DNA from: Phycisphaerae bacterium
GTDB taxonomy: Bacteria; Planctomycetota; Phycisphaerae; UBA1845; Fen-1342
Length of the DNA: 64,000 nucleotides
Direction: 5' to 3'
Assembly: GCA_050115495.1 (NCBI GenBank)
Contig: JASFQK010000001.1
Coordinates: 128,001 to 192,000 of the forward strand
A program made the position numbers and the translations under genes. Below the pieces are notes generated by a model, which ran no database searches, was not told the origin of the DNA, and saw nothing but the letters and a program-made list of their open reading frames with translations. Below are positions 41,113 through 50,552 of the stretch, in pieces; within the stretch, counting starts at the first letter, position 1; each line of letters begins with the position of its first letter.

Positions 41113-42954
41113 TCAAGCAGAATTTGCGCTACCTGTGCGTTGGTGGGCGGAGAGGTGGACAATGAGCATCGAGACGTCCGTTGGGTGGATGCCGCTGACG
41201 CGGGCGGCCTGGCCGATGCTACGGGGTTGGACGGCGGACCAGCGCTCGACGGCCTCGCGTCGGAGGTGGGGAATGCTCGCGAAGTCGAAGTCGGCGGGGA
41301 GGAGTTGGTCCTCGAGCTGGCGGAACCGCTCCACGGCGCGCTGTTCGCGTTCGAGGTAGCCGGCGTACTTCACCTCGACCAGCCCACGCGCCCAGACGTC
41401 GGCCTCGCTGGCGTAGACCGCCAGCTCGGGGAAGAGGGCGACAAATCGGCGGCCGTCTTCCTCGGGGCGCTTCAGCCACTCGTGCAGCGTACGGCCTTCG
41501 TGACGGAGCGTGCGGAGGGCGGCGAGCAGGTCCATTGTCCGGGAGCGCTTACGCTCGAAGCGCGCCCAGCGTTCATCGTCCACAAGGCCGATCTCGCGGC
41601 CGAGGGGTGTCAAGCGGGTGTCGGCGTTGTCGTAGCGCAGGTGCATGCGGTGCTCAGCGCGCGACGTGAACATGCGGTACGGCTCAGTGATTCCACGAGT
41701 GACGAGGTCGTCAATCATTACGCCGATGTAGGCCTGGTCGCGGCCGAGCGTAACCGGTTCCGAGCCGCCGATGTGCCGGACAGCGTTTACGCCGGCGAGG
41801 AGCCCCTGCCCTGCTGCCTCTTCGTAACCGCTGGTGCCGTTGATCTGGCCGGCGAGGAAGAGGTTAAGGATCGTCTTTGTCGCGAGGCCGGGAGTGATCT
41901 GTTCCGGAGGGATGAAGTCGTACTCGATGGCGTAGCCCCACTGCACGACGTGCGCGAGCTCGAGGCCGGGGATGCGGGCGACGATCGCCGCCTGGACGTC
42001 CTGCGGCAGTGACGTGCTGACGCCGTTGAGGTAGATGCGGTCGCTGTCGCGGCCCTCGGGTTCGAGGAAGAGTTGATGTTGCTTCTTGTCGGCGAAGCGG
42101 ATGATCTTGGTCTCGATGCTCGGGCAGTAGCGCGGGCCCTGCGATTGGATTTGGCCGGAGAAGAGCGGGGCGCGGTGCAGGTTGGCGCGGATGATCTCGT
42201 GGACGTCGGCGTTCGTAGCGCTCAGCCAGCAAGAGACTTGTGGCTGGGTGATGTGGTCGGTGAGGAAGGAGAACGGTGCCGGGTCGACGTCGCCGGCTTG
42301 TTCGGTGAGGCGCGAGAAGTCGATCGAGCGGCGATCGATGCGGGGCGGCGTGCCGGTCTTGAGGCGTTCGAGGCGCAGGCCGAGGGCGGCGAGCGAGGTG
42401 CTGAGGTCGTTCGCGGGCGGTTCGCCGATGCGGCCGCCGGGGGTCTGCTCTTCGCCCGTATGCATCAGCCCGCGGAGGAACGTGCCGGAAGCCACCACGA
42501 CGGCGCCGGCGGATAGCGTCCGGCCGTCGCCAAGTGTGACGCCGGTAACGCGACGTGTGTCGTCCGCAGCGACGATGGCGGACGCTTCGCCTTCGATGAT
42601 GTCGAGGTTGGGGCAGTTTTCGAGGTATCGCAGAAGGACGGCGGGGTAGAGGTCGCTGTCGATCTGGGCGCGCGGGGCCCAGACGGCGGGGCCCTTGCGG
42701 CGGTTGAGCATGCGGAACTGGATGCCGGCCTCGTCGGTGACGCGGCCCATGAGACCGCCGAGGGCGTCAATCTCGCGGACGATTTGTCCTTTGCCGATGC
42801 CGCCGACGGCGGGGTTGCAGGAGGGTCGGCCGATGGCGGCGCGGGCGAAGGTGATGAGCGCGGTCTTGGCGCCGAGGCGGGCGGCGGCCCAGGCGGCTTC
42901 GGCGCCGGCGTGTCCGCCGCCGATCACGATGACGTCAAAACAGGGCGCGGGCAT
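41113..42954 (-). CDS. mnmG: tRNA uridine 5-carboxymethylaminomethyl modification enzyme
   Basis: IGGGHAGAEAA, SCNPAVGGIGKG, RLKTGTPPR, GPRYCPSIE, GQINGTSGYEEAA, EPYRMFTSRAE. Confidence 0.97.
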   Translation of the reverse strand: MPAPCFDVIVIGGGHAGAEAAWAAARLGAKTALITFARAAIGRPSCNPAVGGIGKGQIVREIDALGGLMGRVTDEAGIQFRMLNRRKGPAVWAPRAQIDSDLYPAVLLRYLENCPNLDIIEGEASAIVAADDTRRVTGVTLGDGRTLSAGAVVVASGTFLRGLMHTGEEQTPGGRIGEPPANDLSTSLAALGLRLERLKTGTPPRIDRRSIDFSRLTEQAGDVDPAPFSFLTDHITQPQVSCWLSATNADVHEIIRANLHRAPLFSGQIQSQGPRYCPSIETKIIRFADKKQHQLFLEPEGRDSDRIYLNGVSTSLPQDVQAAIVARIPGLELAHVVQWGYAIEYDFIPPEQITPGLATKTILNLFLAGQINGTSGYEEAAGQGLLAGVNAVRHIGGSEPVTLGRDQAYIGVMIDDLVTRGITEPYRMFTSRAEHRMHLRYDNADTRLTPLGREIGLVDDERWARFERKRSRTMDLLAALRTLRHEGRTLHEWLKRPEEDGRRFVALFPELAVYASEADVWARGLVEVKYAGYLEREQRAVERFRQLEDQLLPADFDFASIPHLRREAVERWSAVQPRSIGQAARVSGIHPTDVSMLIVHLSAHQRTGSANSA

Positions 42955-42978: not shown

Positions 42979-44217
42979 TCATGGCGTGGGTGGGTTGGCC
43001 GGTTGTTGAAGGTGGAAGGTCTGGTGGACGGCCTGAAGGGCGCGGTCGGCGTTTGCTGTTCGCACCAAAACGCTGATTACGATTTCACTGGTGGAGATGT
43101 TCTCGATGTTGATCTCTTCGGCGGCGAGGGCGTCGAAGAGGCGGGCGGCGACGCCGGTGTGCGTGCGCATGCCGAGGCCGACGACGCTCAGCCGGGCGAG
43201 GTCGGGTTCGACGGCGACTTCGGCGGCGGTGTGGCGGGTGGCGATGAGCTCGGCGGCGGCCTGGGCGGCACCGATGACCTGGGCGTCGACGGTGAAGGCG
43301 ATGTTGGCCTTGGTACCGCCGGCGGAGGCGGTCTGGATGATGTCGTCGACGTTGATGCCCTGGCGGGCGAGGGGTTCGAAGATGGCGGCTTCGATGCCGG
43401 GGCGGTTGGGGAGGCCGACGATCGTGACGCGGCCGACGTCGCGCTTGAGCGAGCAGCCGCGGACGACCACTTCTTCGAGGTCGGGGGATTCGTTCATGAT
43501 GATGGTTCCGGGGTTGTCGGTGAGGCTGCTGCGCACGTGGATCGGGATGTTGAAGCGCTTGCCGAGTTCGACGGAGCGCGTGTGCATGACGCCGGCGCCG
43601 AGGGAGGCCAGCTCGAGCATCTCGTCGTAACTGATGCGCTCGATCCGGCGGGCGGTCGGGACCAGCCGCGGGTCGGCGGTGTAGACGCCGTCGACGTCGG
43701 TGTAGATCTCGCAGGCTTCGGCGTGCAGAGCGGCGGCGAGGGCGACGGCGGCGGTGTCGCTGCCGCCACGGCCGAGCGTGGTGATATTGAAGTCGGGGTC
43801 GACGCCCTGGAAGCCGGCGATGATGACGATGCGGCCCTGGTCGAGCAGCCGGCGGATGCGGTCGGCGTTGATGGAGCGGATGCGGGCCTGCGTGTGGTGG
43901 CTGTCGGTGAGCATGCCGACCTGGGCGCCGGTCAGGCTGATGGCGTCGTAGCCGGCTTCGTGGATCGCCATGGCAACGAGGGCGATGCTGACCTGCTCGC
44001 CCGTGGCCAGGAGCATGTCCATTTCGCGCTTGGAGGGGTGGCGGGTGACCTGGTAGGCGAGGCGGACGAGTTCGTCCGTCGTGTCGCCCATCGCCGAGAC
44101 GACGAGGACGACCTGGCGGCCTTCGAGCATCGCGCGCACGGCCCGCCGGGCGGCGAGGTGGATGCGAAACGCGTCGCCGACGCTGGTGCCACCGAATTTT
44201 TGGACGAGGATGGGCAT
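42979..44217 (-). CDS. lysC: aspartate kinase
   Basis: [38 protein letters not shown], two ACT domains. Confidence 0.96.
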
Positions 44218-44219
44218 GG
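44147..44219. repeat. 73-bp direct repeat, copy A (lysC 5' end)
   Basis: Matches 46895-46967 with 2 synonymous mismatches. Confidence 0.95.
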
Positions 44220-46894
44220 CATTTTGGGGCGGCGGGGTCTCCGATTCCGCGGTGACATTATACCGCGGGGAAGGCGGGAGGCCTGGCGCGCGTTTGCGGC
44301 AGCCCCAAGTCTGAGGTTTTCGGTCACGGCGAGTGCATGAGGCGGGCGTTGAGTGGAGGAGGGGTCGCCGCGGAACCGGGGTTGTCTGCGAGCGTGGTCA
44401 TCGCACGTTGCGGCACCGCGTTTCAGGATGTCGCTGCGAGCGACGCCCACGGCTCGGCTCGCAGGTTGGGCATTTGCAGGAGCAGGGACCGTACTTCGGA
44501 GTTGCGGGCTCGGACAGGATGGACAACGAAGTTGCCGCGTCCGTCACTTCGTTTGCTCAACCACCCTTGCCGTTCAAGTTTGGTGGTTATTCGTCTGGCC
44601 AAAGCGACCATTCCCGGGTCAATGCCCCGAAGGAGGGCCGACATGTTCCGTCCCCTGCCGTGTTGGAGGTAGACCTTCCTGAGGACAATAATGCCGAGCT
44701 TGACAGCGTCCGGCACCGCCATCTCCATGACCTCGGCGTTCGTGTTCGGAAAGTTGAATCGTAACACCGTCGCATGAAGCCACGTTGGCAGTTCGCCCTG
44801 CTGTGATGCCCCATCCAAGACACCGATGAGGCAATCGACGAAGCGGACGCCATCGGGGGCGGAGGCGCTCCCGATGCTAAGCAGGTCGAAGCAGCAATCC
44901 TCGAACGTGACGTCCCGGATGCTCCAGTCGTCAAGCACCACCGCACTGATGAAGGCATTTGCAATCACCAATTCTCGGTAGCTAACCGACCCAGCCATGT
45001 GTGCACTTGTACATACCGCATCAGCAAGTAACGTTGGGTCACACGAGTGACGTGCGCTTTCGTGCGCCCAGGTTACGAGGTCCTTTGCCTTTGCGCTGGA
45101 TGCGCAGAGCACGCTCGACGCGACCATTTGCCCGAGTGTGCCCAGAGGGTGCCTAATGGGCTGATCCTGCATACTGTCATTCAGAACTCCCCGCACGAGA
45201 CGTGCGATCCCCATTCCCGCCAGCGCATCAGCCCATTCCTCATCCACGAACCACTTGCGTCCTTCTCCGCGAAATGTGATTCCTGGAAGACGCTGCAGTA
45301 TAGTCCAAGCGTCTTGGTCGGGCTGATGGCCGGTGGCGAGGCGAAACGCATGTTCCAGGTCTGTGTCTGCGATCGGTCCGAGGATCTGTGGCTCTCGTCG
45401 CATGACATGCGCAAGGCTGGCCAGGACGCCCACAATTGCGTCCTTGTCCATGGCTGTCGCGATCTTCGCCTCTCGACCACAGATCATGTTGATGACCTGT
45501 CGCCAGGCATCTCCAACATCGTCCTCTTCCACGATGCCGGTTATTTCGTTGATGTAGCCAGTCTGCGCGAGATAGCTGAGAAGCAGTGGCCGCCGAGGTA
45601 ACCATCGGGAGAGCCGCGCTTCGATATTGTACTGCTTGAGGAATGTAGCGGCTTCGTTGGCCGCAAGCTCGCGAAGCTCCAGAATGGTTACCGCATCTGG
45701 GCTGATATCGAGAGCTTGACAGAGTTCCTCTTCGGACGGAAAGTAGTGTGTGCGGCCACTGATCAACACGCCGCACTTGCTGGGTCGCTGCTCCAGTATA
45801 CGCCGGACTGCAGTCAGCGCTTTCCGACGTACTTTGTCCAATGTAAGGCGATCGTATGCCCAAGGTTGAGGGGCAACCTCGTCGAAGCCGTCGAGAAGCA
45901 GGGTGATGAAGCCCTCCTGCCATGCCCGAAACAACTGCAGTCCGGCGATGCTCCCAAGCTTCTGTGCATGACGGAGGAACACTTCATCTGGGGACTCCTG
46001 GCCCCAGTGTTCGCGGAGGTTAATGGCCACGGGGAAGGGGGCCAACAGCGTTTGATCGGACTCGAGGCGGCGGTATACATCACGGGTGGTCAGGCTCTTG
46101 CCCGCGCCGAAATCCCCCAGCAAGATGACGACCTTGCCGGCGCGCAGTTGTGCGACAATCCAGTCGATATCTACGTCCTTGCTTGCAGAGCGCAGCAGTA
46201 TGGGCGTTGCATATCGAGGAAGGTCGTTCGTGGCCACTTTGCCGAGGGGATCTGCCGCGCTGCCAAAGCTGTGTAGTGGACGCAGATGTTGATACTCGGT
46301 TCGGCACAGGACTGGCTCGCTGAACTCTTCGGCGCTGACCAAAGACACGCCCGAGGAGCGGGCAAGTTGCCGCTGCTGGGGTGTGGGATCCACGAGCATG
46401 ACCATCCACGGTTCGACAACGAAGGCTGTCTTGCCCTCTTCGCGCTTCGCGGCCACGAGTTTGTTCATGTCGGCGCGGACTTTTTCCATGTCGCGCTCAA
46501 TTGTGGCCTCAACGAGGTACGTACGGTCGTTCAGCCGCAAGACGCCGTCGATTTGGCTTCCGGCGAGGGTCTCAGAGCCGCCGCTTGCGCCTGGCCAGCG
46601 GACTTTGGCCAAGCGGCGCACATATGCCTCAAACTCATCTGGTCGCATGGGCGGTTGCCTCCAAACATGGTGGCTGGAAGGGCAAAACTGATAGTTCAGA
46701 CGGCCTTGGGTAAGAGCCAAGCCTGTCGGATACCGCACTGCAACATCTGAAGAAGGCAGAACACCCCAACTGCATGTCCACCAGAATGAGTATACCGCGA
46801 GGGGGGGCGCGGCACAAGAGACCTCAAGGAAGGGAGCTGTCGCGCCAGGGTTGGTCCCGTGGTTCTGGTGTGCGTTGGAGGCGTTTTCGCGTCG
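44220..46894. mobile_element. integrase-less genomic islet inserted at the lysC 5' end
   Basis: Flanked by 73-bp direct repeats 2748 bp apart; lower GC and foreign codon use; single cargo gene. Confidence 0.75.
44423..46648 (-). CDS. restriction-endonuclease-like domain + NACHT (STAND) NTPase, putative anti-phage protein
   Basis: DEFEAYV...IDGV...LVEAT N-terminus, Walker A GDFGAGKS, INLR, Walker B LLLDGFDEV, ISGR..YF, RPLLL; GGAGG RBS before ATG 46648. Confidence 0.82.
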   Translation of the reverse strand: MRPDEFEAYVRRLAKVRWPGASGGSETLAGSQIDGVLRLNDRTYLVEATIERDMEKVRADMNKLVAAKREEGKTAFVVEPWMVMLVDPTPQQRQLARSSGVSLVSAEEFSEPVLCRTEYQHLRPLHSFGSAADPLGKVATNDLPRYATPILLRSASKDVDIDWIVAQLRAGKVVILLGDFGAGKSLTTRDVYRRLESDQTLLAPFPVAINLREHWGQESPDEVFLRHAQKLGSIAGLQLFRAWQEGFITLLLDGFDEVAPQPWAYDRLTLDKVRRKALTAVRRILEQRPSKCGVLISGRTHYFPSEEELCQALDISPDAVTILELRELAANEAATFLKQYNIEARLSRWLPRRPLLLSYLAQTGYINEITGIVEEDDVGDAWRQVINMICGREAKIATAMDKDAIVGVLASLAHVMRREPQILGPIADTDLEHAFRLATGHQPDQDAWTILQRLPGITFRGEGRKWFVDEEWADALAGMGIARLVRGVLNDSMQDQPIRHPLGTLGQMVASSVLCASSAKAKDLVTWAHESARHSCDPTLLADAVCTSAHMAGSVSYRELVIANAFISAVVLDDWSIRDVTFEDCCFDLLSIGSASAPDGVRFVDCLIGVLDGASQQGELPTWLHATVLRFNFPNTNAEVMEMAVPDAVKLGIIVLRKVYLQHGRGRNMSALLRGIDPGMVALARRITTKLERQGWLSKRSDGRGNFVVHPVRARNSEVRSLLLQMPNLRAEPWASLAATS

Positions 46895-46967
46895 CGGGCG
46901 GCGAGGTGGATGCGAAAGGCGTCGCCGACGCTGGTGCCACCGAATTTCTGGACGAGGATGGGCATGG
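46895..46967 (-). pseudogene. duplicated lysC 5' fragment (direct repeat copy B)
   Basis: Encodes [24 protein letters not shown], then diverges into non-lysC sequence (ORF to 46696). Confidence 0.9.
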
Positions 46968-47166
46968 GGTTAGGGTGCGGACGATTCAGTTGGTGCCGCG
47001 CGGGGGATTATACCGCGGCGGGAGGAGGGAGTCAGAAGTCAGGAGTCAGAAGGCGCGAGGGCGGGCGCGTGATGAGGAGGACGGAGGAGATTTGAGATCT
47101 CAGATTGGCGGCCGCCCAGGGCGAGCGGCGGTTGCGTAGAGATACAGGCGAGGAGATGCGGATTGA

Positions 47167-47196
47167 GGCACTGGTGGGCAAGCCACCAGTGGCACC
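47167..47196. repeat. REP-like palindrome
   Basis: Identical 30-mer at 18832-18861; just after queA stop. Confidence 0.8.
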
Positions 47197-47213
47197 GAGC
47201 GATGGTTGGTGCG

Positions 47214-48251
47214 TTAGAGGATCAGCATGGCGTCGCCGTAGCTGTAGAAGCGGTAGGCGCGGGTGATGGCTTCGGTGTAGGCGGTGAGGATTTGGTCGCG
47301 GGTGGCGAAGGCCATGACGAGGGCTAGTAATGTGCTGCCGGGGAGGTGGAAGTTGGTGATCAGGCGGTCCACGTGGCGGAACGTGTACGGGGGGTAGATG
47401 AAGATGTTGGTCCAGCCCGAGGCCGGGGCGGTGTCGAGGGCTGGTAGGGATTCGAGGACGCGGACGGACGTCGTGCCGACCGCGACGAGACGGCCGCCGG
47501 CGGCGCGGGTCTGACGCAGCGTGGCGAGCGCGGGGGCGGCGATGTCGTACCACTCGGCGTGCATGGGGTGATCGGCGAGGTCGTCCACCTCGATCGGGGC
47601 GAAGGTGCCGAGGCCGACGTGTAGGGTGACATTCGCCTGGCCGACGCCGGCGGCGGACAGGTGGGCGAGCAGCTCGGACGTGAAGTGCAGGCCGGCGGTC
47701 GGGGCGGCGACAGCGCCGGGACGGTTGGCGAAGACGGTCTGATAACGCTCGCGGTCCGCCTGGTCGGGCTCGCCGTGGCGGCCGGCGGTGTCGGGACGGA
47801 TGTAGGGCGGCAGGGGCGGCTGGCCGGCGCGGTCGAGGAACTCGATCGCGGGGACATCGGGGTCGGGCCGGGCCTGCCAGGCGCCACGCTGGCCGCGGTC
47901 GGTTAGGATGAGGTCGCCGCCGGCGTCGCAAGTCAGGCGTTCGCCGACCTTCAGCCGGGCGGAGGGCTTCAGGAGCAGGTGCCAAAGCCCGGCCTCTTCG
48001 CGGAGGAAAAGGGCCTCGATCCGACCGCCGGTGGCGCGGCGGCAGAAGAACCGGGCGGGTATGACGCGGGTGTCGTTGAGGATGAGGCAGTCGCCGGGAT
48101 CGAGGTATTCGGGCAGGTCGCGGAAGGTGCGGTGCTCGATGCGGCCGGTGTCGCGGTGGAGGACGAGGAGTCGGGAGGCGTCCCGGGGCTCCGCCGGCCG
48201 CTGGGCGATGAGGTTGGGGGGCAGGTCGTAGTGAAGATCAGCGAGGCGCAT
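47214..48251 (-). CDS. queA: S-adenosylmethionine:tRNA ribosyltransferase-isomerase
   Basis: LIAQRP, NDTRVIPAR, PLPPYI, AAPTAGLHF, TLHVGLGTF, TNFHLP, RFYSYGDAM. Confidence 0.97.
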   Translation of the reverse strand: MRLADLHYDLPPNLIAQRPAEPRDASRLLVLHRDTGRIEHRTFRDLPEYLDPGDCLILNDTRVIPARFFCRRATGGRIEALFLREEAGLWHLLLKPSARLKVGERLTCDAGGDLILTDRGQRGAWQARPDPDVPAIEFLDRAGQPPLPPYIRPDTAGRHGEPDQADRERYQTVFANRPGAVAAPTAGLHFTSELLAHLSAAGVGQANVTLHVGLGTFAPIEVDDLADHPMHAEWYDIAAPALATLRQTRAAGGRLVAVGTTSVRVLESLPALDTAPASGWTNIFIYPPYTFRHVDRLITNFHLPGSTLLALVMAFATRDQILTAYTEAITRAYRFYSYGDAMLIL

Positions 48252-49571: not shown

Positions 49572-50552
49572 ATGCGTTCACGACACGTCCAAGTAGTTGT
49601 TTCCCTCGATCGAGTTCGTGCTTCCGCCGAAGCGATCCGCCGATCCGTGCGGGCGCGGCTGATTGCCGTGGTGAAGGCGGATGCGTACGGGTTGGGCGCG
49701 CCGCAGGTGGCGGATGCGCTGGCCTCGGTCGTGGATGAGTTCGCGTATTTCTCGATCCACGAAGCCCGCGAAGTCGGCCGGGCCGGAGTGGTACTCGGAC
49801 CACCCGATTGCGACGCGGCCGCGTACCGCGAGTTGAACCTGCGCCCGCCGGTGGCGAACCTCGAACAGGCGGCGCGCTTCGCGGGTCTGCCCGTCGCGGT
49901 GAAGGTGGACACGGGCATGCAACGGTTCGGCTGTCCGCCGGAGGGGCTGGACGCGCTGTTGAAGAGCTGCCACGCGGTGGACATCTTCACGCACGCGATG
50001 GAGCTGCCGGCGGTGCGGCGGCTGCGCGAGCTGTGCGGCGGACGCGGGCCGTGGCTGCACGCGGCGTCGACGTCGCTGTTGGGTTGTGAGGAGGCGTGGC
50101 TCGACGGCGTGCGGCCGGGACTGGCGCTGTATCGCGGCGCGGCGCGCGTGTCGGTGCCGCTGCAACTGGTGCGGGACACGTCCGGCGGCGTCGGGTATAC
50201 GCAGTTCACCTGTCCGCGCGTCGGCGTCATTCTTGCCGGCTACAGCAATCACCTGCGCCAGGCGCCGGTGGTCATCAACGGGCGTCGGCAGCAGTTGCTC
50301 GAAGTGGGCATGAACACGGCGTTCGTCTCGGTCGATCCGCGTGACCGGGCGGGCGACGACGTGGTGCTGCTGGGCGACGGGCTGACCGAGGCGGAACTCG
50401 CTGGACACTTCGGCTGCCGCGAGCACGAAATTCTGTGCATGTACACGGCGATGGGTCAGCGCAGCCACGTGACGGCGCCGGCGGGTGGAACGCCGACGGA
50501 GGGTTGCTGCCGGGCGCCGGCGACTGGACAGGCCTGTACGTCGGGCTCGTAG
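49572..50552 (+). CDS. alr: alanine racemase (compact)
   Basis: AVVKADAYGLG, KVDTGMQRFG, VRPGLALY, VGY, GY, VGMN, E..C. Confidence 0.82.
   Translation: MRSRHVQVVVSLDRVRASAEAIRRSVRARLIAVVKADAYGLGAPQVADALASVVDEFAYFSIHEAREVGRAGVVLGPPDCDAAAYRELNLRPPVANLEQAARFAGLPVAVKVDTGMQRFGCPPEGLDALLKSCHAVDIFTHAMELPAVRRLRELCGGRGPWLHAASTSLLGCEEAWLDGVRPGLALYRGAARVSVPLQLVRDTSGGVGYTQFTCPRVGVILAGYSNHLRQAPVVINGRRQQLLEVGMNTAFVSVDPRDRAGDDVVLLGDGLTEAELAGHFGCREHEILCMYTAMGQRSHVTAPAGGTPTEGCCRAPATGQACTSGS

Follow-up and report, generated by a model that had tools for sequence, protein, structure and literature searches.

The stretch of DNA analysed here (the window) comprises 64,000 nucleotides of contig JASFQK010000001.1 of the Phycisphaerae bacterium assembly GCA_050115495.1 (positions 128,001 to 192,000 of the forward strand). 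On its minus strand, between queA and the aspartate kinase gene lysC, lies a 2,748-bp islet that carries a single gene (the cargo) and is bounded by direct repeats of the lysC 5' end. Sequence comparison with relatives indicates that the islet is an insertion, and that the intact lysC now starts from non-resident, islet-borne upstream DNA. Taken alone, the lysC islet does not constitute a new system; it belongs to the integrase-less islets with long gene-end repeats. Read along the minus strand, the locus consists of queA, a promoter-like site, a lysC 5' fragment, a cargo gene of 741 amino acids (aa), a second promoter-like box, the intact lysC, and mnmG:

47214..48251, minus strand: queA, host gene and ancestral upstream neighbour of lysC (Pfam Queuosine_synth, E = 5e-127; adjoins lysC in 11 relatives)
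47007..47035, minus strand: resident lysC promoter-like site CTGACT-17-TATAAT, now ahead of the fragment (sigma-70-like call)
46895..46967, minus strand: repeat copy B, the displaced lysC 5' fragment (24 codons), which reads into an 89-aa chance open reading frame (ORF) at 46965-46696
46789..46817, minus strand: predicted promoter-like box of the cargo gene, TTGTGC-17-TATACT (read from the sequence; one of 20 CGCGGTATA sites in the genome)
44423..46648, minus strand: cargo gene, 741 aa, with a restriction-endonuclease-fold N-terminus, a NACHT NTPase and a beta-rich C-terminal region (predicted defence protein resembling NOD-like receptors, NLRs)
44257..44268, minus strand: predicted islet-borne promoter-like -10 box CCGCGGTATAAT, 39 nt ahead of the intact lysC ATG
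44147..44219, minus strand: repeat copy A, the 5' end of the intact lysC (sequence comparison)
42979..44217, minus strand: intact lysC, 412 aa, encoding a monofunctional aspartate kinase (matches TIGR00656 and NF005155 at scores over the cut-off; Pfam AA_kinase and ACT)
41113..42954, minus strand: mnmG (gidA), 24 bp downstream of lysC in the same orientation (Pfam GIDA, E = 2e-159), which may share the lysC promoter through co-transcription

The two lysC repeats lie in direct orientation at a spacing of 2,748 bp and are equal at 71 of 73 bp, with mismatches solely at offsets 23 and 53, which leave identical blocks of 23, 29 and 19 bp. Both mismatches are synonymous, as an initial annotation of the window had described: codon 6 is CAA in the intact lysC and CAG in the fragment, and codon 16 is GCG and GCC, respectively. 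Each copy spans 23 full codons, preceded by 2 nt of leader and followed by 2 nt of codon 24, which encodes Arg in both. In the 5.97-Mb assembly, the 73-mer was found just at these two lysC starts (E = 1e-29). The guanine plus cytosine (GC) content of the cargo gene is 0.593, against 67% genome-wide, and its third-position GC is 0.67, against 0.90 for lysC and queA.

The assembly, with its 85 contigs, derives from a metagenome and is 92% complete; a mis-assembly or a chimera of two strains would be conceivable. We compared the locus with contigs from two runs, X1, possibly the source sample of the assembly itself, and X2, which belongs to a different study but shares year and habitat type. The longest identical run inside the lysC repeat is 29 nt, and in X1 a 17,607-bp contig takes in both repeats and the islet in full, without a single difference and at even depth. 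In X2, the lysC-side junction (lysC, repeat and cargo end) is crossed by a 597-bp contig, also without differences, and a 151-bp contig from the start of the cargo is identical too. An artefact, which the initial annotation had named as one outcome that would undo its proposal, is accordingly extremely improbable.

The ancestral state of the locus was assessed from lysC loci taken from 40 family and 18 order genomes (58 relatives). In 11 of these queA lies upstream of lysC, and in 10 of the 11, including two of the same genus and eight of the family, the two genes are separated by just 7-138 bp, so that the present islet reads as an insertion. These are the empty sites whose existence the initial annotation had proposed to check, and the empty arrangement is known from other species only. 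Other accessory genes between queA and lysC were seen in a single relative (G010, L034:9649-11146), where 1.5 kb hold a DUF6941 gene, a 73-aa ORF and a PemK-like toxin gene without any lysC repeat; the suggestion of a queA-lysC hotspot with swapped cargo thus found no support.

The insertion left lysC with its frame and N-terminus restored and with a predicted -10-like box ahead of it. The initial annotation held that this housekeeping gene now depends on islet DNA, and its start does now lie there. That dependence appears soft and reversible, as a crossover between the repeats would cleanly remove the islet and restore an in-frame lysC behind the resident promoter. An aspartokinase-homoserine dehydrogenase gene is also present in this genome.

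The two leaders differ markedly from the coding repeats. In the whole assembly CCGCGGTATAAT occurs exactly twice, both times here, 39 nt before the ATG of the intact lysC and 41 nt before that of the fragment. The spacer between box and ATG is identical at 21 of 41 positions, within the range of shuffled sequences (P = 0.067), in agreement with the earlier description of a shared box about 40 bp upstream with diverged sequence in between. The 100 nt further upstream of the two boxes show no relatedness (P = 0.41), and on these comparisons the leaders share no more than the box at its distance from the ATG; a wider homology of the promoters, past the -10 box, was dropped, the comparison not being significant. 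In the interval 43900-47400, the site at 47007..47035 is the sole sigma-70-like site called (10 of 12 matches, 0.7 expected by chance), the box at 44257..44268 going uncalled because it lacks an adequate -35 and the cargo-gene box at 46789..46817 falling below threshold. The CGCGGTATA motif occurs 20 times in the genome, three of them within 2.8 kb here (46789-46799, 44257-44268 and 47007-47018), and the box ahead of the cargo gene might be left over from a previous insertion behind a promoter of lysC type.

Upstream of the fragment copy, the DNA borders on queA and is matched at 128 other places in the genome; for the DNA upstream of the intact copy that number is zero. We infer from this that the fragment keeps the resident promoter and that the intact lysC starts on incoming DNA. 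Several genome-wide repeats with more than 100 matches elsewhere lie in the queA-lysC spacer at 47000-47200 (a tandem of GAGTCAGAA type and, near 47167-47200, a palindrome), and the resident promoter-like site is flanked by such repeats. No structured RNA or riboswitch-like fold was found in five leader segments (z -0.94 to 0.90; Rfam not searched), and searches for a source of the 246-nt cargo leader and the 205-nt lysC leader were negative.

Mobility genes were sought within the islet, with Pfam in the 741-aa ORF and with NCBIfam in that ORF, seven alternative-frame ORFs and the fragment ORF. No integrase or transposase family was matched by these islet ORFs, as the initial annotation had it, and the 741-aa ORF matches NACHT/AAA alone in Pfam. 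Tyrosine-integrase matches number 12 in the genome; the closest is 60.5 kb from the islet, and seven of them, by position, lie within ~1.5 kb of a tRNA. The Resolvase family gave no match in this 92%-complete genome.

The initial annotation further proposed that the islet targets lysC, and that integrases might be found beside lysC 5' fragments elsewhere. Neither idea was borne out. A separate second lysC 5' fragment was seen in none of the 43 family genomes with a match to the LysC N-terminus (71 searched), nor a short-frame second copy in any of 147 phylum genomes with a match (400 searched), in collections that hold one genome per species and could miss reuse at strain level. Second LysC matches in G062 and G069 proved to be longer aspartokinase frames on other contigs, and that in G030 a paralogue. 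With the tyrosine-integrase profile, none was detected next to lysC in the 58 relatives. A metagenome pattern scan returned three contigs, without queA and without a lysC duplicate, and the single tyrosine integrase in these and the relatives' lysC loci lies ~11 kb upstream of lysC, without a lysC repeat. A degenerate lysC 5' pattern had 0 matches in viral contigs, and among 50,697 phage records there were just two weak matches, annotated thrA. We consequently rejected lysC as a recurrent attachment (att) site on the family, phylum, viral-contig and phage searches.

Neither the cargo gene nor its promoter-like box had been described in the initial annotation. The architecture of the cargo predicts an anti-phage protein of NLR-like type. 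It matches Pfam NACHT below cut-off (E = 9e-5), and its structure model (predicted local distance difference test score 86) has NLRP3, NOD2, NLRC4 and Avs4 as top fold matches. Residues 1-114 match restriction-nuclease folds (8z4i at Z 11.3, root-mean-square deviation 2.4 Å, 106 aligned; 1y88 at Z 11.6). Walker A GxFGxGKS (K184 in the cargo) and Walker B LLDGFDE are conserved in 24 cargo homologs, and D[GAS]hDE is the Walker B signature of bacterial NACHT proteins (bioRxiv 10.1101/2022.07.19.500537). Across 35 sequences E7, D34 and T49 are invariant and K56 and K63 nearly so; the canonical ExK lysine is absent, so that nuclease activity of the modelled N-terminus is uncertain.

At E <=0.001, 547 database proteins among 8,000 candidates match the cargo, the closest homologs at 43-71% identity, and the 78 homolog loci come from many phyla. 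Closer to home, the cargo was found in just one of 278 order genomes and one of 400 class genomes, at 31% identity. In the ESM Atlas it falls among NACHT clusters, some with pentapeptide or inactive restriction-endonuclease domains, and it could not be placed in a named family from the available part of PMC13581612. PADLOC applied to 24 aligned family members gave five matches, to CARF-nuclease or Csx1 models. No islet protein matched a methyltransferase (PADLOC, Pfam, NCBIfam). The protein thus belongs to a widespread NACHT family without a PADLOC match and is a candidate for phage defence. Four viral contigs (L200-L203) encode distant relatives (26-28%).

The cargo homologs did not hold up as a family of repeat-bounded cassettes: a bracketing repeat was present at 10 of the 78 loci, of which only L113 is a clear protein-gene-end duplication, the others being two tRNA att sites and, for the rest, intergenic or dispersed repeats. 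At L113:9100-14762 the homolog lies inside a 63-bp gene-end duplication, at L121:9524-12404 it stands alone between 106-bp intergenic repeats, and at L148 and L149 it is found in tRNA-bounded islands.

Comparison of the genome with itself gave 48 low-copy direct-repeat pairs, and 20 regions, covering about half of the pairs, were inspected. Nine were judged to be gene-end duplications, including that of lysC, with repeats of ~70-170 bp and inserts of 1.1-4.4 kb at 57-65% GC; the remaining inspected pairs looked like paralogues, dispersed repeats or contig-end overlaps. The targets are the 5' end of lysC, the 3' ends of pyrB, a thuA-like gene, aspartokinase-homoserine dehydrogenase, a radical SAM gene, a hexapeptide acetyltransferase gene and two ORFs without Pfam match, and tRNA-Lys. 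The eight further islets lie at (contig and coordinates, locus in brackets):

C49:19534-20885 (L175)
C13:84938-87860 (L172)
C10:5854-7237 (L170)
C26:38687-40634 (L169)
C30:23293-27969 (L173)
C53:4057-7163 (L177)
C5:167156-168457 (L186)
C27:23233-25471 (L174)

A tyrosine integrase was detected in none of the nine, and no shared junction motif was visible by eye in the junction sequences listed. The sister islets carry toxin-antitoxin-like and metabolic cargo, which includes an MqsR/MqsA-Panacea-like pair, a PIN gene accompanied by a TIGR04255 gene, a P-loop protein, a cluster with thioredoxin, a glycosyltransferase and a PEP-CTERM-like protein; an 'MGMT-like' label for the C53 gene was dropped as it has no Pfam match. 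A Y1 (IS200/RAYT-like) gene is located beside the C26 islet (L169:2050-2499).

Each islet target tested in other genomes appears, from the sequences compared, to be private to one genome. A second pyrB tail was found in none of 64 other genomes with a match, a candidate in G031 being a contig overlap, and a second thuA tail in none of 13. A duplicate of the typA 5' end occurs in G027 only, of 64 genomes with a match (G075 has one partial match at 69% identity, not inspected). In G027 (C7, L194:3500-6400), a 320-bp repeat of the typA/bipA 5' end (99.7%) encloses a 2.2-kb insert at 55% GC; of its two unknown genes, one has a faint match to OST-HTH. The intact typA has a new start codon and leader. 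Similar repeat pairs were noted at loci L041, L058, L101, L113 and L114, which suggests that the islet build is common and not special to this genome. At L181:125-2348 (C44 of the present genome), two stretches from within an ABC-3 permease gene (142 and 184 bp, 95%) recur next to each other at a distance of ~1.7-1.9 kb, forming a 3' copy with an internal deletion; 14 of the 15 differences are at third codon positions.

The codon positions of the mismatches bear on the origin of the second copies. Over 10 repeat pairs, 6, 19 and 43 mismatches fall at positions 1, 2 and 3 (43 of 68 at the third), and a simulation of self-duplication in which the fragment drifts while the gene stays under constraint reached at least 43 third-position changes with P 0.004-0.009. 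For lysC, the weightier argument is a coding part that is 97% identical beside an unrelated leader, which suggests that the second copy likely came from a related lineage. The earlier proposal of a replacement lysC start and promoter from a relative stands for the islet-borne start and upstream DNA, on the contrast of 128 and zero genome matches, and as to the relative is plausible on sequence grounds and weakly tested.

Several published systems resemble the lysC islet. One is insertion with long target duplication, described by Furuta, Abe and Kobayashi (2010; PMC2853133), who left its mechanism open. It likewise involves small inserts without mobility genes (<20 kb; here 2,748 bp, in which no mobility family was found), flanked by repeats of >30 bp (here 73) over a translation start or stop with the gene left intact, and a single-gene nuclease cargo (mcrA) is known there too. 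The lysC islet differs in carrying a nuclease-fold NACHT gene with no methyltransferase match, not a restriction-modification pair, which places it outside the strict restriction-modification set; its lysC leader is replaced, not copied, and the empty arrangement comes from other species. The H47 island of E. coli also lacks an integrase and has long imperfect direct repeats of several identical segments; it is, however, 13 kb long with excision and integration demonstrated, whereas the lysC islet holds one gene, repeats a core-gene 5' end and is known from sequence alone (PMC3191183). Single-crossover inserts from E. coli conjugation similarly place foreign DNA beside a variable-length partial copy of a homologous gene without an integrase, although they derive from a laboratory plasmid (109-950 bp) and the lysC islet would be a natural event (PMC3240628).

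Replacement of a gene's 5' end has been published for integrative and mobilizable elements (IMEs) at dusA and the SXT integrative and conjugative element (ICE) at prfC (bioRxiv 10.1101/2021.06.18.448947), which, like the lysC islet with its predicted promoter, insert in a gene 5' end and supply a replacement promoter and N-terminus. These elements encode an integrase and a directionality factor, recur at their site and bring a diverged N-terminus (61% identity), in contrast to the lysC islet, for which neither an integrase nor recurrence was found and the 24 residues are identical. Cis-mobilizable elements (CIMEs) also lack mobility proteins and are bounded by direct repeats of the target gene end, but they stem from ICEs or IMEs with a known integrase for the site (PMC7563491), and no such parent was found near lysC in the 58 relatives (tyrosine-integrase profile) or in the viral contigs, absence from these samples being no proof. 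The cargo itself shares with bNACHT25 and Avs3/Avs4 the effector-NACHT-sensor layout, a restriction-nuclease-fold effector and the Walker B DGFDE (bioRxiv 10.1101/2022.07.19.500537; PDB 8dgc, 8dgf), and differs from them in having no PADLOC match, no ExK lysine, a beta-rich C-terminal part in place of TPR/HEAT repeats, and a mostly solitary gene. Literature searches for this exact combination gave just two preprints, on Acinetobacter prophages, and integration-site tables in supplements may list lysC sites. Nobusato et al. 2000 is reportedly an earlier reference on insertion with long target duplication.

We lean, by a little over even, towards a host-catalysed single crossover by which DNA of a related lineage, in the form of a circularised fragment, became integrated. 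The donor fragment would have consisted of the cargo gene, the lysC promoter and the first 24 lysC codons; trimmed inside lysC, its ends would have been joined at what is now 46894/46895, and the circle would have recombined with the resident lysC through the ~70-bp lysC anchor. The resident promoter and 24 codons would thereby be stranded upstream and lysC rebuilt behind the incoming promoter. The anchors would always be gene termini, an accessory gene arriving with its neighbour's end, as only such crossovers leave the host gene whole, and the benefit of the predicted anti-phage cargo would keep the islet in place. The homology stops abruptly at codon 24, and the intact ATG is preceded by DNA that does not copy the resident leader; this geometry fits a single crossover, and nine private gene-end duplications of variable length make host recombination the simplest single account. 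The ComEC and DprA families, both present in the genome, would permit DNA uptake. Single-crossover inserts with partial duplications of 109-950 bp were obtained in E. coli from donor DNA that had been trimmed and re-circularised (56 of 60 clones, 14 sequenced; PMC3240628), and H47 excises and integrates via its long imperfect repeats without a recombinase of its own, also in recA cells (PMC3191183), so that the host pathway need not be RecA.

A number of observations weigh against this single-crossover account. An anchor of 73 bp is short for RecA. No excised circle, which the initial annotation had suggested looking for at 2,748 bp, and no empty allele was found among the listed contig joints of X1 and X2, though contigs drop rare forms and this is no evidence of immobility. 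No donor with the cargo next to lysC was found in 278 order and 400 class genomes. The typA case, at 99.7% over 320 bp with an unrelated leader and start, would need a near-identical donor or later homogenisation. In the codon test, the two internal ABC-permease repeats supply 14 of the 43 third-position mismatches, and the gene-terminal repeats alone are not significant (21 of 35, P 0.06-0.11; 29 of 53, P 0.11-0.18). The tRNA-Lys islet begins near the anticodon loop, the pattern of integrase att sites, and is probably an integrase relic. As for the defence role, the cargo has no PADLOC match, and among 116 neighbour ORFs at 26 of the 78 homolog loci, clear defence genes stood at one of the 26, three other neighbour matches being to MADS models that may be generic.

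The main rival, which we consider possible but clearly less probable, is that a site-specific element (IME, ICE or prophage) once integrated in the 5' end of lysC and then lost its integrase, the islet being what remains of it, or that the islet is mobilised in trans, as CIMEs are. The sharp homology boundary would suit it, as would the replacement starts supplied by dusA- and prfC-targeting elements, the 12 tyrosine-integrase matches and the integrase-less tRNA-Lys islet, and a prophage named 54.lysC excises in Acinetobacter, its position within lysC not appearing in the available part of the preprint (bioRxiv 10.64898/2026.02.16.706188). This rival has to accommodate the missing second lysC fragments in family and phylum, relatives' loci and metagenome contigs with one distant tyrosine integrase, the lack of viral-contig matches beside two weak thrA-annotated phage ones, and integrase matches of which seven in 12 lie by tRNAs; eight protein-gene targets would require eight integrases, all lost without trace. 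It is quite unlikely that recipient DNA was truly duplicated by break repair or template switching at cargo insertion, a model put forward for restriction genes, and then drifted. Inserts with long variable duplications, often over start or stop codons and including a lone mcrA, are known (PMC2853133), the cargo has a nuclease fold, the typA repeat is near perfect over 320 bp, and the gene-terminal repeats alone do not reject drift. A single duplication followed by drift would, however, erode both parts alike, whereas at lysC the coding part is 71/73 identical and the 41-nt leader is at shuffle level; many sister islets carry non-nuclease cargo (thioredoxin, glycosyltransferase, PEP-CTERM-like, toxin-antitoxin pairs), and the pooled codon-position bias is significant.

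The locus would thus illustrate the gain of a single gene without mobile-element machinery and with an important gene left whole. Nine islets at unrelated gene ends, some with non-nuclease cargo, favour a general host-recombination route over a cargo-driven or site-specific one, and offer several natural substrates for testing how insertion with long target duplication arises. A more far-reaching idea, which we regard as doubtful, is that such gene-end cassettes are self-renewing, leaving as circles between the repeat copies, being taken up as DNA and re-entering at the same gene end by host recombination. If true, with ~9 cassettes per genome, single defence and toxin-antitoxin genes of these planctomycetes would have a main channel in this route. 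The lysC cargo would then be the founder of an uncharacterised, cross-phylum nuclease-NACHT family of immune receptors with a beta-rich sensor. Beyond queA, the window holds an alanine-racemase-like gene of ~296 aa at 49578-50468 on the plus strand, detected by its N-terminal Pfam domain alone and found near queA in several relatives.

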